This document shows positions 5,251 to 40,657 of a DNA stretch of 41,800 bases, piece after piece. Both the position numbers and the translations under genes were made by a program. Below the pieces are notes generated by a model that searched no databases, was not told the DNA's origin, and saw only the letters and a list, made by a program, of their open reading frames with translations. Origin of the DNA: Escherichia phage vB_EcoD_Teewinot; sequence record NC_073053.1; one strand, given 5' to 3'. The number at the start of each line of letters is the position of its first letter. Position 1 is the stretch's first letter.

Positions 5251-5311
5251 CATTAGTGTGTCCTCGTTGTTGGTGTGCAACCAATATATGCAACCAATAC
5301 GAGGATTGCAA
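5251..5311 (-). promoter_or_regulatory. leftward promoter-RBS-ATG cassette (duplicate of the cassette at 38308-38369)
   Basis: On the minus strand: -35 TTGCAA (5311-5306), 17-bp spacer, -10 TATATT (5288-5283), two ATTGGTTGCA copies, GAGGA RBS (5265-5261), ATG (5253-5251). The 28-nt stretch TATATTGGTTGCACACCAACAA(C)GAGGAC is shared with the promoter of the gene at 38367. Confidence 0.45.
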
Positions 5312-7363: not shown

Positions 7364-7864
7364 ATGTATGGCGACCCGCAAACCTTTGTTGTTTATGCCG
7401 CTGCGCGAGGCGTTGAAATTACGCAGAGCGACGCAACGCGACACCTTACCATTGTTAATGACTTCCTTAACGGCATCGACTGGATCGGCGAACAAGCGGA
7501 CCCGACCGGAATTGACGCATGGCCCCGCGTCAACTACCCGTCAGACGGTAAGCCGGTGCAAAACACGCTTACTGAAGATTTGGCAGTAGTTCCCGCTGGG
7601 CAGATTGTAGACTTCGCGTCAATCCCTGTTGCCGTTGAGCAAGCCGTTTACCGGCTGGCTATGCTGGTGGCGGACGATGTTGATATTTCTCCGATCGGGG
7701 ACGGTAAGGAGACTATCCGCGAAACTGTAGGCCCGATCACGATGGAGTATGACCCCGCGACGATTGGTAGCGGGGTGTCGTTCCCGTGGTGGGATGGCTT
7801 GTTAGGCCACTGGGTTGATTCAGGCGGCAACGCCGCAGGCAATTTCGACGTATTCAGGGGGTAA
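7364..7864 (+). CDS. hypothetical head/connector protein
   Basis: ATG 7364 preceded by AGGAG (7351-7355); 166 aa; lies between capsid and tail genes. Confidence 0.5.
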   Translation: MYGDPQTFVVYAAARGVEITQSDATRHLTIVNDFLNGIDWIGEQADPTGIDAWPRVNYPSDGKPVQNTLTEDLAVVPAGQIVDFASIPVAVEQAVYRLAMLVADDVDISPIGDGKETIRETVGPITMEYDPATIGSGVSFPWWDGLLGHWVDSGGNAAGNFDVFRG

Positions 7865-7865
7865 T

Positions 7866-8084
7866 ATGAATCCTGCATTACTCGCGGCTATTATCGCCGC
7901 AAATACTAAACGCCGACAGGAACCGGAACCACCGGTACCAGCGCCAGAACCGGAACCACCGGTACCAGCGCCAGAACCGGAACCACCGGTACCAGCGCCA
8001 GAACCGGAACCACCGGTACCAGCGCCAGAACCGGAACCACCGGAACCAGCGCCAGAACCGGAACCACCGGTACAGGAGGGCTAA
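7866..8084 (+). CDS. small proline/glutamate repeat protein
   Basis: ATG 7866 preceded by AGGGGG; 72 aa, N-terminal hydrophobic segment followed by about five copies of PEPEPPVPA encoded by a 27-bp tandem DNA repeat. Confidence 0.5.
   Translation: MNPALLAAIIAANTKRRQEPEPPVPAPEPEPPVPAPEPEPPVPAPEPEPPVPAPEPEPPEPAPEPEPPVQEG
7920..8076 (+). repeat. 27-bp tandem repeat (about 5.8 copies) inside a coding region
   Basis: Unit GAACCGGAACCACCGGTACCAGCGCCA repeated head-to-tail from 7920; four exact copies, a fifth with one substitution, and a partial sixth. Confidence 0.85.
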
Positions 8085-10992: not shown

Positions 10993-11135
10993 TGAAGCGG
11001 GACAGGCGGGACGTCCCGTTTTGTCCCGCCTCTGTAAAACTGCATATCTACTCACTTCCACTGCATAAACTCAAAACGGGACAAGCGGGACGTCCCGCTT
11101 TGTCCCGCCCTGTAAATGTGCATACCTATGCAGTT
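10993..11135. repeat. pair of 30-bp GGGAC palindromes with TGCATA-containing spacers
   Basis: Two near-identical imperfect palindromes CGGGACAAGCGGGACGTCCCGCTTTGTCCCGCC around 11003-11040 and 11084-11120, each centred on GGGACGTCCC, separated by CTGTAAA(N)TGCATA-type repeats. Confidence 0.7.
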
Positions 11136-11139
11136 TTAT

Positions 11140-11313
11140 TGCATAAAGTAAGCGGGACAAAAAGCGGGACAAACAAGGGGCGGGACAAAGCGGGACAGCA
11201 CCCCGTCCCCGCCAGTGCTGCCGCGGTTTTCAGCCGATCGGGACAGCGGGACAGCACCCCAGTCTTTCAGACTAGACGGGGGTCAATGGCCCCCCTCGTC
11301 TGAGACTGAATAA
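11140..11313. repeat. 174-bp GCGGGACA-array element, copy A
   Basis: Four tandem GCGGGACA units spaced about one helical turn apart, a variable centre, two more GGGACAG units, then a long imperfect hairpin (AGACGGGGG...CCCCCCTCGTCT). Near-identical copy at 37996-38169. Confidence 0.8.
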
Positions 11314-23496: not shown

Positions 23497-23518
23497 TGCA
23501 ACCAACCTATTGGTTGCA
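23497..23518. promoter_or_regulatory. perfect inverted repeat of the ATTGGTTGCA motif (operator-like)
   Basis: TGCAACCAA-ccta-TTGGTTGCA; the TAG stop of the HAD gene lies in the 4-bp spacer. Confidence 0.5.
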
Positions 23519-31190: not shown

Positions 31191-31973
31191 TTAACGGCGG
31201 CGACGTTTACGTGGCGCTTCGTCTTCGTCGTCGTCCTCATCTTCGTCATCGCGTGGCTTACGACGTTTGCGAGGTTTTTCATCTTCCTCATCGTCGTCGT
31301 CATCGCGGCGCTTGGATTTCTTGGACTTGCGCGGCTTGTCATCTTCATCATCGTCATCACGACGTTTTGACTTTTTGGACTTGCGCGGTGCTTCGTCTTC
31401 GTCGTCGTTGTCCAGGTCTTCATCGGAGCAAGAAGACCCGCCACCTCCGAAGGCTTCGCCGTCTTCACGGAATCGCAGACCCAGCAAGCCAGCCCCGAGA
31501 CCCTTGCCGTTGGTATTGTTCCATGCCCAAATATCAAGGGACACGTTGCAATAACAACCGGAGTAGATCTCCTGGCCTTCAATCTCGTCGCCGTCGATGG
31601 TCAGACCTTGTTCAGTCTGCTTCTCGCCGAGTGACGTTTGAATGATCGGCTGTTTGAACGATTTGGCGTTGATGTACAACATGCCTTCGAATTCTTCGGT
31701 TACTTCGTCGCGCTCGTCACCGTCGCGAACTGCGCATTCCTTAGAATCCTGGGCGTAGTGGCGGTCCATCCACTTATCAGCATTCTTCTCGGATTTCAGC
31801 TTGTCGGTGAGCACTGCGCGCGCTGCCGCTTCCACTTTGTCCACCTGCGGATCTTCTTTATCAAGGAGAATCACTGCACGGTATGCCGGTTTTTGTCCAT
31901 CCTGTTTAGGGGTATCACGTTCCCAAATTTTCAGGAAGCATACGCGCACATTTTTCAGGTTGACTTTAGCCAT
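31191..31973 (-). CDS. ssDNA-binding protein (T7 gp2.5-like/DUF2815-like, from memory) with charged repeat tail
   Basis: 260 aa from ATG 31973 (GAGGA RBS), beginning MAKVNLKNVRVCFLKIWE; the C-terminal third is a DDDEDDKPRKSKKSKRR-type repeat ending in RKRRRR; sits between polymerase and Cas4-like nuclease genes. Confidence 0.5.
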   Translation of the reverse strand: MAKVNLKNVRVCFLKIWERDTPKQDGQKPAYRAVILLDKEDPQVDKVEAAARAVLTDKLKSEKNADKWMDRHYAQDSKECAVRDGDERDEVTEEFEGMLYINAKSFKQPIIQTSLGEKQTEQGLTIDGDEIEGQEIYSGCYCNVSLDIWAWNNTNGKGLGAGLLGLRFREDGEAFGGGGSSCSDEDLDNDDEDEAPRKSKKSKRRDDDDEDDKPRKSKKSKRRDDDDDEEDEKPRKRRKPRDDEDEDDDEDEAPRKRRRR

Positions 31974-34196: not shown

Positions 34197-34640
34197 TTAA
34201 TCTTCCAGTTCGAAATAGGTTTCGACGATTTCTTTTAAATCTTTGTGGAAGTCTTCAACGTCGTCGTCTTCCAGCTTGGCGATGGATTTAATTTCGAACG
34301 CTTCCAGCAGATCATCAAATTCGTCGTTCGCGTCGTCATCGTCACCACCGGCAATAATCGCGGCATACTGTTTGATTTCGTCGCGCATCTCTGCCAGCGG
34401 ATCGGCATCTTTCTTACCTTTGCCTTTCGCCGGTGCTTTTTTAGACTTAGCCGGTTTTTCGTCGTCGTCATCTTCTACGACTTCTTTTTTAGCCGGTTTT
34501 TCGTCGTCATCTTCGACAACTTCTTTTTTGGCCTTAGACGGCTTCTTGTCTTCCTGCTTACCAACGGTTTCATAATGCTTAGCGATGGTTTCCAGTGCTA
34601 CTACTCCGCGAGTGATCAGGTTTACGATTTGCTCAAACAT
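34197..34640 (-). CDS. acidic repeat protein (candidate early anti-defence/DNA-mimic protein)
   Basis: 147 aa from ATG 34640 (GGAG RBS); runs of D/E (EDDDE, EDDDDE, GGDDDDANDEFDD, EDDDVED) and a duplicated KKEVVEDDD(D)EKPAK unit; first gene after the leftward promoter, with its own terminator. Confidence 0.6.
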   Translation of the reverse strand: MFEQIVNLITRGVVALETIAKHYETVGKQEDKKPSKAKKEVVEDDDEKPAKKEVVEDDDDEKPAKSKKAPAKGKGKKDADPLAEMRDEIKQYAAIIAGGDDDDANDEFDDLLEAFEIKSIAKLEDDDVEDFHKDLKEIVETYFELED

Positions 34641-34836
34641 GGTATATCTCCGATTGGTTAAGTTTAGGTGTCGGCAGTTAACTTCGTCGGTGGCCTTAAC
34701 ATATTGCCAGGTTACGCGTTCTCCCGTTCGGGTAGTGGACCTGGTTATATAATCACGGTTGGGAATCCTGACACTTCGATCCGGCCCCTGCGTTGCCCCT
34801 CTCCAGTTTGCGTCCTGCATCCTGTCGACGGAGTGA

Positions 34837-34866
34837 ATGATAGATTGGTTGCAGGATGGGTGTCAA
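34837..34866 (-). promoter_or_regulatory. leftward sigma70-like promoter with ATTGGTTGCA in the spacer
   Basis: On the minus strand TTGACA (34866-34861), 18-bp spacer containing the motif, TATCAT (34842-34837). Confidence 0.4.
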
Positions 34867-35043: not shown

Positions 35044-35373
35044 ATGAATATCAAAGAAGCAATTGAAGTGTTATCTAATGCAATCCGCGGCGAAGCGGGT
35101 AAATCCTGGTATTACACAAATGCGGTGGATACTCTGTTATTTGAAGTGTCCAGATTATCGCGTGCTGAGAAGGAGCTTACCGCGAAGCTGGAATTGCTCA
35201 ACGGCACGGCAGCAAGCAAGCTGCAAAAGCACAATGAAGAAATGGAAGAATACAAAAAACAGGTTATCCGTTTGCGCGCCGAGGGCAAATCCTGGGCGAT
35301 GATTGCCGAGTTGACCGGAATTAATCAGAGCACAGTGCGCTCCTGGGTACGCAATAATAAAACTTCTAAGTAA
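35044..35373 (+). CDS. HTH DNA-binding regulator
   Basis: 109 aa; C-terminal GKSWAMIAELTGINQSTVRSWV is a typical helix-turn-helix; first gene of the rightward operon. Confidence 0.65.
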   Translation: MNIKEAIEVLSNAIRGEAGKSWYYTNAVDTLLFEVSRLSRAEKELTAKLELLNGTAASKLQKHNEEMEEYKKQVIRLRAEGKSWAMIAELTGINQSTVRSWVRNNKTSK

Positions 35374-35383
35374 GGCCACGGCA

Positions 35384-37648
35384 ATGAACTTAATTAAATT
35401 CGCTGTAACACGACCCGCTAAAAAAGGCGAAAAAGCCAGGGCGGAAAACTTCCAGATGACCACCGATGAGTTTTTCGAATTTATTAATGATGCGAAAGAA
35501 ATATCCTCGGTGCATATCAACAAGACGGAAGATAAAGCGGAGTATGCGCGCCGCAAGCGTAAGGCTGATGGTATTGTGGCTTATACCCGTGACGGCTTAC
35601 GCCGCAAGACCAGTGCCGTGGACCGCTCGATCCTGTTCTTCGATATCGACCGTACCGACACCCGCACCCTGCGCCGCTGCCGTAAGGCTTTCATCGACGC
35701 GGGGCTGGAGCACGTATTTCACACCACAACCGGCGACCGCCACCCGCTGAAAGGCGGCACGCGTTGCGCTCGATTCCTGGTACTCACGGACAAGCCTGTA
35801 CCGGCTGAAGACCTGGGCCGTGTCCAGTATGCGCTATTACACCAACTGGGTCTGTCAGATGTGGACTTCGACGATTGCACGAAAGACACAAACCGCCTGA
35901 TGTACCTGCCACACCAGCAGTCTGTCGTTAAGTGCCACTACGGCAAGCGCGCCCGCGTCCGTCGTCTGCTCCGCCTGGCTGACAAGCTGGGAGTCGAGAA
36001 AGAGGAAGTACGCCGCGAACTGACCCAGGGCGATGATGGTGTGGCGGACGGTATTCTGGATTGGTGCTTCCAGGCGGGATTCGAACCGCTGTCGTCTGGT
36101 CGTGGTTATGAAGTGCCATGCCCGAACGAACACCTGCACAGCGGCGAAGGGTCCACCGCTATCTTGGTTAAGGATGGCGAGATCCGTTTCAAGTGTATGC
36201 ACACCGGCAACGAGTGTTGCTCGGAGCTGAACAGACACCAGCACCTGGCGCTACGTCTTATCGGGATCCCGGACCACCTGAACGTCGAGCCACACAACAT
36301 GTCCCGTAAGCAAATCGCCGCCATCCTCCCCGGACTGGACGACGAGGAAGTGGAATCGTGCTATGAACATATCGTTGATGCGGTCGGAGACGGCGACGAG
36401 TACGGCGTGTGTACTGATGCAGACCTGGACAACGAGCCGGTCGCACTGTTCAGTAAGCACGACCCGATCATCGAAGGCCTGGTCAACTTCAAATCGACCT
36501 GGTATCTCGCCGGTGAGTCGAACATCGGTAAATCGTTCTACGTGCTGGGGCAAATGGGTGCGGTTGCCGCGGGGATTCCGTTCGGCGGTGCGAAGGTCGT
36601 CCAGTCCCATTGCTTCTATTTCGACGCGGAAGGTGGCGAAGCCTCCAACCAGCGTAAGGAAGCATTGCAGATCAAATACGAGCACGACCTCGACAAGCTG
36701 CACATTATCGATCTGCAATCACGCGGCTGGGATATCACCAGCAAATCCGGCTTGCGTGAAGTTATCAGCTTCATCAACCGCACCGCTAACGGCGAACCGG
36801 TTGGCCTGGTGGCGTTCGACTCACTCAACCAGACGGTTGCGCTGCGGTCCGCCGATGCTAAACCGTTCGACGAGAACAACGCCAGCGATATGGGTGAAGT
36901 GGTCAAAGCGCTGAAGGCCATCGCGGAAAATACAGGCGGCAGTGCTGGCGTCATCCACCACCCGGCGAAGGGTGCAAACGGCAGCAGATCCCCCCGCGGG
37001 TCCGGCGCGCTGCATGGTGCTGTAGATTCCGCGTTCTTCCTGGAGCAACCGGACGACAATCAGCCCGGACAACTTAACCTGTATCACGAGAAGGCACGTA
37101 ACGGCATCAAGCAAGCGCCGCGCGGCTTCGTCCTGCTCAAGTGCAAGGTTAAGGTGGATCTCCGCAAGTCCGAGGCGTTCGAGGCGCACCAGTCCACCAG
37201 CACCGGGCCAGACTTCGGCGACGTGGTTGCCGGATGGGACGTCAAGCCGATTGCCTCCACGCCACGCGACGAGACTCTCTACCTCGTACCGGTCGCCCTG
37301 GCACCGTTCGCTATAGAACAGGCGAAGGCGGCTGGCAAGGCCGCGGTTAAGGACGAGAATGCCGCAGGACCGCGCAACGAAAAAGAGAAAGTGCTTTATG
37401 CGGCACTGGAAAAACTGATGGAAGATAACCCGGACCATACCGGATTCAGCAAATCGGCAATTGTCCGCCAGGCGGGATTGGCAAAAGGTGGAACATCTAC
37501 GAAGGCAATAGACGATATGGTTGAGCGCGGAGTGTTAGGTTTTTATACCGATCCGCACACCGGGGCCATCTATGGGTCGTCGAATATAGTCATCAAAACG
37601 AATATACCCATCACGCTTTCTGCGACCGATGACGACCTGAAAGATTAA
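35384..37648 (+). CDS. primase-helicase (AEP-type primase domain plus P-loop ATPase)
   Basis: 754 aa; N-terminal SILFFDIDRTD (hhhDhD primase-polymerase motif) and DDCTKDTNRLMYLP, a Cys/His zinc-binding segment, then Walker A GESNIGKS. Confidence 0.7.
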   Translation: MNLIKFAVTRPAKKGEKARAENFQMTTDEFFEFINDAKEISSVHINKTEDKAEYARRKRKADGIVAYTRDGLRRKTSAVDRSILFFDIDRTDTRTLRRCRKAFIDAGLEHVFHTTTGDRHPLKGGTRCARFLVLTDKPVPAEDLGRVQYALLHQLGLSDVDFDDCTKDTNRLMYLPHQQSVVKCHYGKRARVRRLLRLADKLGVEKEEVRRELTQGDDGVADGILDWCFQAGFEPLSSGRGYEVPCPNEHLHSGEGSTAILVKDGEIRFKCMHTGNECCSELNRHQHLALRLIGIPDHLNVEPHNMSRKQIAAILPGLDDEEVESCYEHIVDAVGDGDEYGVCTDADLDNEPVALFSKHDPIIEGLVNFKSTWYLAGESNIGKSFYVLGQMGAVAAGIPFGGAKVVQSHCFYFDAEGGEASNQRKEALQIKYEHDLDKLHIIDLQSRGWDITSKSGLREVISFINRTANGEPVGLVAFDSLNQTVALRSADAKPFDENNASDMGEVVKALKAIAENTGGSAGVIHHPAKGANGSRSPRGSGALHGAVDSAFFLEQPDDNQPGQLNLYHEKARNGIKQAPRGFVLLKCKVKVDLRKSEAFEAHQSTSTGPDFGDVVAGWDVKPIASTPRDETLYLVPVALAPFAIEQAKAAGKAAVKDENAAGPRNEKEKVLYAALEKLMEDNPDHTGFSKSAIVRQAGLAKGGTSTKAIDDMVERGVLGFYTDPHTGAIYGSSNIVIKTNIPITLSATDDDLKD

Positions 37649-37960
37649 ATTTTGCGCGCATTGGGAATTCCCATATCGCTAAAGATTAAATTTTGCGCGC
37701 ATTGGTTGCCATTTTGGGAATTCCCATATCGCTAAAGATTAAATTTTGCGCGCATTGGTTGCCGATATGGGAATTCCCATATCGCTAAAGATTAAATTTT
37801 GCGCGCATTGGTTGCCATTTTGGGAATTCCCATATCGCTAAAGATTAAATTTTGCGCGTATTGGTTGCCATTTTGGGAATTCCCATATCGCTAAAGATTA
37901 AATTTTGCGCGTATTGGTTGCCATTTTGGGTGTTTTTAACTGGTCGTATTGGTTGCCGTG
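37640..37960. repeat. iteron array, about six tandem 53-bp repeats (candidate origin of replication)
   Basis: Unit AAAGATTAAATTTTGCGCGCATTGGTTGCCATTTTGGGAATTCCCATATCGCT at 37681, 37734, 37787, 37840, a 41-bp first copy at 37640 (12-bp deletion) and a degenerate sixth; each has the palindrome TGGGAATTCCCA, extended to GATATGGGAATTCCCATATC in the third copy. Starts in the last codons of the primase-helicase gene. Confidence 0.75.
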
Positions 37961-37995
37961 TAGGGTGATTATTATGAATAGTTATGCAATAAAAC

Positions 37996-38169
37996 TGCAT
38001 AAAGTAAGCGGGACAAAAAGCGGGACAAACAAGGGGCGGGACAAAGCGGGACAGCACCCCCGTCCCGCCCCGGATGGCGCGGCTTTCAGAGGAGCGGGAC
38101 AGCGGGACAGCACCCCAGTCTTTCAGACTAGACGGGGGTCAGTGGCCCCCCTCGTCTGAGACTGAATAA
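37996..38169. repeat. 174-bp GCGGGACA-array element, copy B
   Basis: Same length as copy A (11140-11313); identical over the first 60-odd bp and the last 70-odd bp except one A/G difference, with a diverged roughly 40-bp centre. Confidence 0.8.
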
Positions 38170-38307
38170 AATCCCAATACACGGCAGCATAGTGAAAATT
38201 GCGTCGAGGGTAGAACTCGGCAACCAATGCGGGTTGGATAATGGAGAGTGGGAAATGCAGCCACCGCGGATAGCGATCAACTTTTTCATGCGCATGATTA
38301 ATATTGG

Positions 38308-38336
38308 TTGCATTCGTGCCAGCACCCTGCTATATT
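38308..38336 (+). promoter_or_regulatory. sigma70-like promoter built from two ATTGGTTGCA copies
   Basis: TTGCAT (38308-38313, from motif copy 1), 17-bp spacer, TATATT (38331-38336), then motif copy 2 (38334-38343), GAGGA RBS and ATG 38367. Confidence 0.45.
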
Positions 38337-38366
38337 GGTTGCACACCAACAAGAGGACTGCACAAA

Positions 38367-38708
38367 ATGAAATTTCCAGTAACTATCACCGGCAACGACC
38401 ACGGCACTTACGAGAGTACCAAAATGAAAGCATTAATCTGGAATTACACAATGGCGATGGCAAAGCTGAACGAAGCGAAAGCGCTGAACGGCAACATCGA
38501 CCGCGCGGCACATATCGTAATACTGGCACAGCAGGCAATCATGTGCGCGCTCGACGGCATGGATGAACTGGCGAAGGCAATTCACGAATACGCGCAGGCA
38601 TTCTCCCGTGAGCGCCTGGCATATCGCTTCGGGATCGGCGAGACGGCAGTGACAAACGTCGCCCGGATTAAAGCCCAGCGCGAACTATTCGCCCAGCTTG
38701 CGAAATAA
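38367..38708 (+). CDS. hypothetical protein
   Basis: 113 aa from ATG 38367 (GAGGA RBS); the track start at 38304 lies inside the promoter. Confidence 0.55.
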   Translation: MKFPVTITGNDHGTYESTKMKALIWNYTMAMAKLNEAKALNGNIDRAAHIVILAQQAIMCALDGMDELAKAIHEYAQAFSRERLAYRFGIGETAVTNVARIKAQRELFAQLAK

Positions 38709-39903: not shown

Positions 39904-40381
39904 CAACGGTCTACGATTTACGGCAGCATGGGAGACTTTCAGCCCAGTGCCGTATTTCGCGACTAAGAAAGAGCAGGCCCGCGGCCTGTACACCTGGGGT
40001 TATGGTCATACCGGCACTAACCCGCCTCGAAGCATTACCCGCGCGGAAGCGCTGGAGCTACTCAAGCGCGATGTGGCGTATGCTGAGGACCGGGTGAACA
40101 AATACGCACATCCGAGCATTAACCAGGCGCAATTCGACGCGCTGGTGGACCTGGTGATCAATGCTGGTCCCGGTCCGATCGTACCGGACGACGTAGCCGG
40201 TGACTTCGATGATGCGGTGCGACTGGGTGACTGGGCGAAGGTCCGTGCTACTCTGCCGCAGTTCCGCAAGCAAGGTGGGGAGGTGCTTAAGGGTCTGGTC
40301 CGTCGAGCAATCGGCAGGCAAGCGCTATTCGATGGAAAGCAGTGGGACGTTGCCGAGAAAATCGGTCGTAACGCAGCATAA
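39890..40381 (+). CDS. endolysin, GH24 lysozyme type
   Basis: 163 aa; recalled P22-type lysozyme landmarks match: SDNGL near the N-terminus, catalytic E (WETF), YTWGYGHTG, INQAQFDALVDLVINAG, C-terminal RRAIGRQALF. Confidence 0.8.
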   Translation: MRFSDNGLRFTAAWETFSPVPYFATKKEQARGLYTWGYGHTGTNPPRSITRAEALELLKRDVAYAEDRVNKYAHPSINQAQFDALVDLVINAGPGPIVPDDVAGDFDDAVRLGDWAKVRATLPQFRKQGGEVLKGLVRRAIGRQALFDGKQWDVAEKIGRNAA

Positions 40382-40397
40382 TACGAGGTAACACAGT

Positions 40398-40565
40398 ATG
40401 CTAAAAAGTATTCTTGATCATAACGCCGACGCGCTCGCCGCGCTGGCTAAAACCGAAGACCCAGGCGCACGCGCCATTATCGCGGACACAATCAGTCATG
40501 CGGGTGTCTTTGATGCGAAGCTGCCGAGTCCGCCACCGCAGGAGGAATCTGGTCCTGCAGCGTAA
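40398..40565 (+). CDS. small hypothetical protein in the lysis cassette (absent from the ORF track)
   Basis: 55 aa (MLKSILDHNADALAALAKTEDPGARAIIADTISHAGVFDAKLPSPPPQEESGPAA) with GAGGTAA RBS, followed by a clean terminator. Confidence 0.45.
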   Translation: MLKSILDHNADALAALAKTEDPGARAIIADTISHAGVFDAKLPSPPPQEESGPAA

Positions 40566-40572
40566 ACAATCA

Positions 40573-40597
40573 AGCCCGGAATTATCCGGGCTTTTTA
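40573..40597 (+). terminator. rho-independent terminator
   Basis: AGCCCGGA-atta-TCCGGGCT followed by TTTTT. Confidence 0.65.
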
Positions 40598-40657
40598 TTG
40601 CTTGACTCGGGACCGTGGTATATTGTCCTCTGACCAATAACCAGGAAGTTAATTAAT

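Follow-up and report, generated by a model that had tools for sequence, protein, structure and literature searches.

The subject of this study is the DNA behind the replication gene of Escherichia phage vB_EcoD_Teewinot (NC_073053.1), where an array of 53-bp tandem repeats begins inside the last codons of the gene. The window, by which we mean the whole stretch of 41,800 nt that was analysed, is a near-complete genome of a virulent E. coli siphovirus of the heavily sampled genus Dhillonvirus (HK578/SO-1-like). The query regions tested show approximately 84–95% DNA identity to some 155–180 Dhillonvirus phages in GenBank, including HK578, SO-1, SSL-2009a, EP23 and several BASEL phages, and the gene order is that of Sodalis phage SO-1 from the terminase genes to gp58. 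At the locus the following features are found:

35384..37648, plus strand: replication gene (754 aa) with an archaeo-eukaryotic primase-type (AEP) primase-polymerase, a zinc-binding motif, a RepA-like helicase and a C-terminal winged helix (Pfam, PHROG, structure models)
37379..37594, plus strand: coding region of the C-terminal winged-helix domain, about aa 666–737 (structure model)
37640..37922, plus strand: tandem array of six 53-bp units (Tandem Repeats Finder, repeat search, manual layout)
37698..37957, plus strand: six direct copies of the candidate initiator site CGYATTGGTTGCC, at 37698, 37751, 37804, 37857 and 37910 (53-nt spacing) and at 37945
37763..37784, no strand: sole full 22-bp palindrome, CGATATGGGAATTCCCATATCG, in unit 3 (inverted-repeat search); the other four copies hold its central 12 bp only
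37958..38005, no strand: AT-rich stretch, 68–70% AT (AT profile), with a conserved GAATAGTTATGCA element and the inverted repeat TTATGCA-N7-TGCATAA
37993..38169, plus strand: GC-rich module, containing two strong hairpins and GCGGGACA six times; a second copy lies at 11137–11313
38219..38231, minus strand: opposed copy of the candidate initiator site, CGCATTGGTTGCC (perfectly complementary to the unit-3 copy over 15 nt)

The first-pass annotation, which was made from the DNA letters alone, had called the gene a primase-helicase, and this is borne out by an AEP PrimPol fold, an AAA_25/RepA-like helicase domain and a C-terminal winged helix. Pfam places AAA_25 (RepA-type ATPase) at residues 357–531 (E 1.1e-19) and the whole protein belongs to PHROG 3228, 'replicative helicase-primase'. 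An AlphaFold model of the N-terminal 350 aa with a predicted local distance difference test (pLDDT) score of 85 had the AEP domain of the cyanophage S-2L PrimPol as its top PDB match (E 5.9e-5), followed by LigD polymerase and Prim-PolC, and the D87/D89 (DxD) pair as well as the Cys/His cluster are invariant. For the C-terminal 165 residues, three helices plus a wing of two strands were modelled at residues 77–148 of the fragment, the mean pLDDT of 10-residue blocks being 75–89. A PDB sequence search with the whole protein gave marginal matches only (RSF1010 RepA, E 0.46). Primase, helicase and C-terminal winged helix are joined here in one chain.

As had been noticed before, the array starts in the last codons of this gene: unit 1 opens with AAA GAT TAA, the final two codons and the stop codon (37646–37648) of the open reading frame (ORF) 35384–37648. 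Tandem Repeats Finder reports 37661–37930 with a period of 53, 5.1 copies, 96% matches and a score of 505, a separate search found six in-register copies at a spacing of exactly 53 nt, and together with the manual layout this agrees with the about six head-to-tail repeats counted at first. Such an array cannot be a product of chance. No ORF of at least 40 aa spans it. The units are arranged as follows:

37640–37680: unit 1, 41 bp, with a 12-nt deletion that takes out its ATTGGTTGCC site
37681–37733: unit 2, full 53-mer
37734–37786: unit 3, full 53-mer with the sole full palindrome
37787–37839: unit 4, full 53-mer
37840–37892: unit 5, full 53-mer with GCGCGT
37893–37922: unit 6, the first 30 nt of the unit only, then unique sequence; GCGCGT

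The length of unit 1 upholds the 12-bp deletion which had been proposed for the first copy, and GCGCGC is present in units 1–4 and GCGCGT in units 5 and 6. The palindrome, described at first for each of the six copies, is found in units 1–5 as the 12-bp TGGGAATTCCCA (37662, 37715, 37768, 37821 and 37874) and not in unit 6, and its long form in copy three has 22 bp, not 20 bp. Nor is the last copy decaying, as ATTTTGGGTGTTTTTAACTGGTCGTATTGGTTGCC turned out to be the unique right flank of the array, which occurs in every relative including the repeat-free ones, that is, in every copy-number state among 20 dhillonvirus loci laid out base by base.

Clustering of EcoRI sites as a restriction decoy was considered and rejected, as GAATTC with 10 copies against 8.3 expected is not avoided elsewhere and gives no signal; five of these copies lie in the array. 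As a separate matter, at least 12 six-base palindromes are fully absent from the window where 8–17 of each are expected (AAGCTT, ACTAGT, AGTACT, CAGCTG, CCATGG, CCTAGG, CGGCCG, CTCGAG, GAGCTC, GCATGC, GCCGGC and GCTAGC), which is strong restriction-site avoidance.

The array was then compared across the genus. Using positions 37540–38010 as query, 155 GenBank phages matched and 60 of them were sampled evenly down the ranking. The locus spans 265–274 nt in 31 and 211–218 nt in 25 of these records and more than 274 nt in none, while it spans 471 nt in the window. The loci fall into four states:

No unit: EP23; no palindrome; one ATTGGTTGCC copy
One unit: HK578, SO-1, SSL-2009a and EK99P-1; no palindrome; two ATTGGTTGCC copies
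Two units: Opt212, Bas15, Bas84, Gluttony and slur05; one 22-bp palindrome between the units; three ATTGGTTGCC copies
Six units: this genome only; five palindromes; six ATTGGTTGCC copies

Two units are found in the closest relative, Opt212, whose gene is 97% identical over its final 700 nt. Roughly four in ten of the sampled relatives lack the palindrome, which occurs in none of the 1-unit or 0-unit loci. Since cultured phages carry zero, one or two units, they can dispense with the unit, with its GCGCGC core and with the palindrome, and neither core nor palindrome, both being absent from viable relatives, is a core element of an origin. The junction GCCATTTTGGGAATTCCCAT, which exists only in the expansion, had no match in IMG/VR, the JGI metagenomes or the GenBank phages. 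As judged from these comparisons of sequences, the 53-bp array is an apparently recent tandem amplification private to this genome and no conserved iteron array; in related replicons only the 13-bp site and the layout are kept. The additional units, like the palindrome, probably have no effect or a modulatory one at most.

All hallmarks of a variable-number tandem repeat are present, with head-to-tail copies of 96% identity, zero, one, two or six units and TGGG and TGG microhomology at the junctions. Clustering on the flanking gene shows 1-unit and 2-unit genomes interspersed, so that units are repeatedly gained, lost or exchanged within the genus. The ongoing slippage suggested by the first-pass annotation is supported by this variation in number, by the scattering of the states over the tree and by the microhomology. 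The 53-mer that is repeated starts with the right half of the palindrome, AATTCCC, and ends in GCCATTTTGGG, with TGGG at both bounds, and because of these bounds most junctions carry the central 12 bp of the palindrome only. The position of the full palindrome, in the middle of the array, calls for several events. As read from the sequences, the ancestral module consists of one or two copies of a ~31-bp segment made up of the last codons, the AT-rich AAAGATTAAATTTT, GCGCGC and then the site ATTGGTTGCC. In this genome a 53-bp segment with TGGG microhomology at its bounds was re-duplicated several times, and one copy (unit 1) subsequently lost 12 nt between two TGG repeats.

That the extra copies are an artefact of assembly or sequencing is very improbable. 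Such an artefact would fit the absence of the junction from every other record or contig, and it is true that the short-read contigs from a 98%-identical relative break off within the region or shortly past it. However, assemblers tend to collapse repeats and not to expand them, the copies differ in an ordered way (deletion in unit 1, full palindrome in unit 3 only, GCGCGT in units 5 and 6 only), and a second array in the same genome is likewise expanded. The contigs with a 98%-identical protein (P0001), L013 and L014 from Logan short-read metagenomes, show the 2-unit state; one breaks off 19 nt past the stop codon, the other within the GC-rich module. Copy-number variation is therefore under-sampled in public assemblies, as short-read contigs break at the repeat region. 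The window's own replication protein had no exact match in the contig collection.

The second array (7920–8073, 27 bp x 5.7, 98% identity) encodes (PEPEPPVPA)n inside a small ORF (7815–8084, 89 aa) between the counterparts of SO-1 gp10 and gp11. A 401-nt query spans about 245–335 nt, mostly ~280 nt, of this locus in relatives, so it is expanded in this genome too, which suggests that amplifications of this kind are simply tolerated or generated in the lineage. Tandem Repeats Finder also lists 54 bp x 2.3 (31283–31408) and 39 bp x 2.1 (34447–34533) in the leftward early region, the 39-bp repeat falling inside ORF 34197–34820.

The repeat that is likely to be functional is the 13-bp CGYATTGGTTGCC, which the first-pass annotation had not singled out. 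Its first copy lies 50 nt past the stop codon, and six direct copies and one opposed copy are found within 37698–38231, the opposed one about 270 bp downstream of the direct ones. The last direct copy (37945–37957) is present in all 20 loci laid out, and an inverted TTGGTTGC stands at the matching relative place in HK578 and SO-1, where this was checked. Copies in or just after the array read CG[CT]ATTGGTTGCC. The 9-bp core ATTGGTTGC occurs 16 times in the window with 0.54 expected, nine of these within 37701–38342. Since 53 bp correspond to about 5.05 helical turns, the sites lie on the same face of the helix.

Between the direct and the opposed sites lie the AT-rich stretch, with 68–70% AT at a genome average of about 46%, and the GC-rich module, whose GCGGGACA repeats at 38008–38109 are the element that had been reported to follow the array. 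Each array unit also holds the AT-rich AAAGATTAAATTTT. The locus is already noticed in the annotation of SO-1: 'region B' (GQ502199, repeat_region 40178–40657) is the same non-coding locus directly after the helicase-primase gene, and its record cites 'direct, inverted and palindromic repeat sequences; sequence similarity with region A' and a 'possible' function. SO-1 region B and the window have the ATTGGTTGCC sites, the GCGGGACA module and the opposed site in common but differ in the array, with one unit and no palindrome in SO-1 and six units and five palindromes here.

Two side observations concern the AT-rich stretch. Right after the last site, GAATAG(T/G)TATGCA is found in the window (37972–37984), in L009 (5293–5305), in L011 (5333–5346) and, as GAATAACTATGCA, in L033 (5291–5303); it reaches two relatives of 68–70% as well as Salmonella phage FSL SP-031 (44% protein identity), which is unusually deep for non-coding phage DNA. 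The 7-nt loop between TATGCA and TGCATA occurs in both orientations (ATAAAAC or GTTTTAT), between 11128–11150 and 37982–38004 as well as between phages. This looks like a small hairpin-mediated inversion and suggests a hairpin or cruciform in vivo.

As to the GC-rich module, its about 190 bp are present twice at about 93% identity, after the replication region and between the tail-chaperone and tape-measure genes, and the two places fall inside 'region B' and 'region A' of SO-1 (GQ502199). Apart from the six GCGGGACA repeats the module contains the hairpin GGGGCGGGAC...GTCCCGCCCC and the long hairpin CAGTCTTTCAGACTAGACGGGGG...CCCCCCTCGTCTGAGACTG. In relatives the short repeat is swapped (GGTGTGGCA in L033, GGGGAGA in FSL SP-031), whereas L009 and L033 retain the long hairpin. 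As both copies stand ahead of late-gene blocks, a role in transcription control or antitermination is possible.

The array might also act as RNA, as a terminator or a structured 3' untranslated element of the replication mRNA, given that it lies directly 3' of the stop codon with no intervening terminator and that the 22-bp palindrome could fold into a 9-bp hairpin. As single-stranded DNA the region folds better than shuffled sequences (z = -4.2), but this was rejected as a diagnostic because favourable folding is expected of any palindrome-bearing tandem repeat. No terminator-like site was found in the array or region B (37640–38370), no T-run follows the palindrome, the Rfam matches are no better than E 0.53 and 0.75 and thus far under the gathering scores, and the palindrome is missing in relatives with one unit or none. 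An intrinsic terminator and a known RNA family were both rejected for lack of a terminator-like site and of a credible Rfam match, and an RNA role in general is hardly to be expected.

A more serious alternative regards the array as a functionless variable-number tandem repeat in a length-tolerant spacer, with the short sites being incidental and the origin lying elsewhere, for example in the divergent promoter region at 34.8–35.0 kb or in the duplicated GC-rich module. The expansion is well accounted for in this way: units and palindrome are missing in viable relatives, the copy number is homoplastic, the 27-bp array is shorter in relatives too, and the cumulative GC skew has its minimum near 35 kb. 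The conserved core is not, as the genus retains the last direct site together with the GAATAGTTATGCA element and the opposed site, the layout is kept at 44–70% protein identity and the clustering of the motif far exceeds chance. We consider this account unlikely.

To look beyond the genus we used eight contigs from lower identity tiers (L009–L012, L031–L033), Salmonella phage FSL SP-031 (L011) included, with protein identities of about 68–70%, 48–49%, 46% and 44%; homologues of the replication protein as a whole fall into tiers of 80–98%, 67–70% and 43–49% identity. An unbiased 8-mer count served to find motifs; it covered the interval from 80 nt ahead of the stop codon up to the next gene. 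In all eight relatives the primase-helicase gene is followed by 290–650 bp of gene-free DNA with analogous motif clusters, which are lineage-specific and start at the stop codon; two opposed groups are seen in the lineages of HK578, L031 and L012. The comparison supports an origin-like anatomy of the post-gene region, with opposed groups of putative sites and an AT-rich stretch, in relatives down to 44% protein identity. Small tandem duplication of the site recurs as well, since in L033 the stop codon is immediately followed by two 15-bp units ATTGGTTGCCATTGA and L009 has a 16-bp unit in duplicate.

An alignment of the winged helices allowed the start of the recognition helix to be compared with the clustered motif:

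Dhillonvirus (window): helix start GGT-STKA; motif TTGGTTGCC, also at promoters elsewhere
L033: helix start GGS-STKP; motif TTGGTTGCC, also at promoters elsewhere
L009: helix start GGT-NTTA; motif TTGGTTGCC, also at promoters elsewhere
L031: helix start SAH-YGKT; motif GTTGGCCGC, six of the seven copies of the locus in the region
L012: helix start GGK-RRPA; motif GTTGGCAGC, five of five copies in the region
L011: helix start GGD-RYKI; motif TGTTGGCTG, three copies
L032: helix start SGGR-YSDA; motif TGTGCGGAA, four of four copies in the region

Near-identical helix starts go along with the same motif and different starts with different motifs. Most of the clustered motifs have the frame TTGG-NN-GC in common with a lineage-specific middle, while one lineage has an unrelated motif; L031 has a TTGCGA cluster in addition. 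The GC-rich repeat does not track the helix, being GGTGTGGCA in L033 and GCGGGACA in the window. Thus GCGGGACA was ruled out as the initiator site, as L033 has the GGTGTGGCA repeats at a near-identical recognition helix and the module is also found far from the replication genes.

Two further features of the locus concern the regulators and promoters around the replication gene:

35044..35373, plus strand: small helix-turn-helix (HTH) gene, 109 aa, first gene of the replication operon (Pfam HTH_23 and Sigma70_r4_2, E about 1e-7)
38301..38369, plus strand: two promoter-type copies, ATATTGGTTGCA, with TTGCAT-17 nt-TATATT ahead of the next gene (ATG 38367)

The 109-aa protein, encoded just upstream of the primase-helicase gene, has a sigma-70 region 4-like HTH. 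Seven of the eight distant relatives likewise have a small HTH gene at this position, following a divergent promoter region, while L032 has small genes without a Pfam match there. These small HTH proteins are not homologous across the lineages but are either of the sigma-70 region 4 type or of the HTH_3 type. As the TTGG-NN-GC frame is kept nevertheless, it points to the sole homologous DNA-binding domain that is common to all lineages, and there is moderate support for the winged helix of the primase-helicase as the putative reader of the 13-bp site.

The 9-bp core also stands at about ten intergenic promoter-like places, co-oriented with the downstream genes, in the window as well as in SO-1, and these copies mostly read ATTGGTTGCA. 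ATTGGTTGCA is found at 5277–5298(-), 21516(-), 23497–23518, 25393(-), 27745(-), 34844, 38303 and 38334, and at the same places in SO-1 (L008); once it forms a perfect inverted repeat, TGCAACCAACCTATTGGTTGCA. The arrangement of the two promoter-type copies recurs at 5277–5298, upstream of a minus-strand gene, and in SO-1. ATTGGTTGCA could be a phage-specific promoter class or the operator of a regulator.

This leads to the alternative that ATTGGTTGC is a phage-specific promoter or operator motif, read by host RNA polymerase together with a phage factor or by a phage regulator, and that the array, as a multiplied cluster of these sites in the 3' part of the replication operon, serves as a regulator sink, roadblock or decoy. 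Outside the post-gene region the motif is indeed almost exclusively intergenic and promoter-like and points with the downstream genes, the -35-like hexamer TTGCA[AT] lies 17 nt upstream of TATATT or TATAGT at several sites (e.g. 38303–38345 and 5277–5298), a near-consensus leftward promoter of the divergent region (34837–34866) has one copy in the spacer that separates its -35 and -10 hexamers, and L010 retains TTGGTTGCA despite a different recognition helix. The array copies, however, have no -10-like hexamer at a workable distance, and a consensus scan found no promoter in 37600–38300. In L012, L031 (six of seven copies) and L032, with loci of 7.7–8.3 kb, the clustered motif is confined to the DNA after the replication gene and is absent from the divergent promoter region, and the TTGG-NN-GC frame is kept across lineages with non-homologous small regulators. 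A purely transcriptional role of the motif is a serious rival, although in our opinion an unlikely one.

Our preferred reading is that the array is a private and recent amplification in a conserved control region, in which the 13-bp CGYATTGGTTGCC is the candidate site for loading of the initiator, and we give this reading an even chance of being correct. The post-gene region is the best candidate for the replication origin that the sequence offers. CGYATTGGTTGCC would be bound by the C-terminal winged helix of the primase-helicase, and the direct copies at the stop codon and the opposed copy ~270 bp further on would bracket the AT-rich stretch and the GC-rich hairpin module. As a self-contained initiator, the protein would load there and oligomerise via its RepA-like helicase domain, and it would then open the AT-rich DNA and prime with the AEP domain. 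The expansion would raise the number of left-hand sites from the usual two or three (one in EP23) to six. The first-pass annotation had taken the 53-bp repeats for iterons next to the initiator gene and thus for the layout of an origin; what remains of this is a cluster of short sites beside the initiator gene, formed by CGYATTGGTTGCC, whereas the 53-bp unit is not a conserved feature.

Several points weigh against this reading. There are no DnaA or IHF consensus sites in 37500–38500, EP23 manages with one direct copy, and we found neither origin mapping nor site binding for any dhillonvirus in the literature. A turn of the GC skew at the array, which had been proposed as a check, is not seen; the skew turns near 35 kb instead and is confounded with transcription direction. 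As its turning points (about 21–22 kb and 35 kb) coincide with switches of the gene strand, it is uninformative on the origin. The 9-bp core is not confined to the region but is present at promoter-like sites throughout the genomes of the window and SO-1, and therefore a transcription factor could read the sites or the sites could be a promoter class. The split between GCC (C-type) and GCA (A-type) copies is a tendency only, with two GCC copies elsewhere in SO-1. Finally, L010 with the helix start SGN-YKKV has TTGGTTGC in three of four copies at the corresponding places together with a dense TTGCGAGT cluster, so that the match between helix and motif is imperfect, with few independent lineages.

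Both roles might also be combined: ATTGGTTGC would be recognised, at the origin as well as at some ten promoters, by the winged helix or by a factor common with RNA polymerase, replication initiation and transcription would be coupled as is the case for DnaA, and the amplification to six sites would adaptively re-titrate this factor. We regard this as a rather speculative and improbable possibility. If it were true, the re-titration could shift the timing of replication or evade defences such as OLD.

Some known systems resemble the locus in part. In P4 the ori and crr repeats are present in both orientations and the helicase of the alpha protein belongs to superfamily 3. The alpha protein unites a bacterial-type (Toprim) primase with a helicase and, at the C-terminus, a winged helix by which the origin repeats are bound (PMC4234260). 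The dhillonvirus protein is similarly a single chain with primase, helicase and C-terminal winged helix, although binding of the site is only predicted here. It differs in having an AEP primase and a RepA/AAA_25-type helicase instead of the Toprim primase and the superfamily 3 helicase, and no homology to P4 alpha was found, the function being alike and the family different. In pRN1 a small repressor gene is followed by an AEP primase-helicase-winged-helix gene and then by the origin, which lies directly downstream of orf904 in the orf56/orf904 operon (PMC4234260). Gene order and domain order match the replication operon of the window with its candidate origin downstream, but the origin of this archaeal plasmid is a ~100-nt stem-loop without iterons, whereas the window region has short repeats, and its helicase is of superfamily 3. 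With a RepA-like and not a superfamily 3 helicase and an AEP and not a Toprim primase, the protein is therefore outside the P4 alpha and pRN1 families.

Iteron origins of theta plasmids and phage lambda show helically phased short sites beside or inside the initiator gene and an adjoining AT-rich stretch, as does the locus described here. Classical iterons have about 17–22 bp at a spacing of about 22 bp, and their number is conserved and needed. Here, in contrast, the distance between the 13-bp sites is 53 or 35 bp, viable phages have anywhere from one to six of them, and the initiator is itself helicase and primase. With variable-number tandem repeats arising by slippage or unequal recombination the array has in common its 96%-identical head-to-tail copies, the polymorphic number and the microhomology junctions, but the unit here carries a conserved, probably functional, putative protein-binding site.

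As an event, the tandem amplification that gave the array is nothing unusual. Few coliphages are isolated as often as dhillonviruses, of which more than 150 genomes exist and some belong to the BASEL collection. The candidate for their replication origin is now narrowed to a ~600-bp region and a specific 13-bp site with its probable reader named. The natural series of zero, one, two and six units is a ready allelic series for relating the number of sites to initiation. Escape mutants of HK578 against the OLD defence have been located in the helicase-primase and in the promoter of its operon, and OLD is argued to sense the initiation of replication (bioRxiv 10.64898/2026.07.10.737580). The place where this protein would be loaded is thus relevant to that work.

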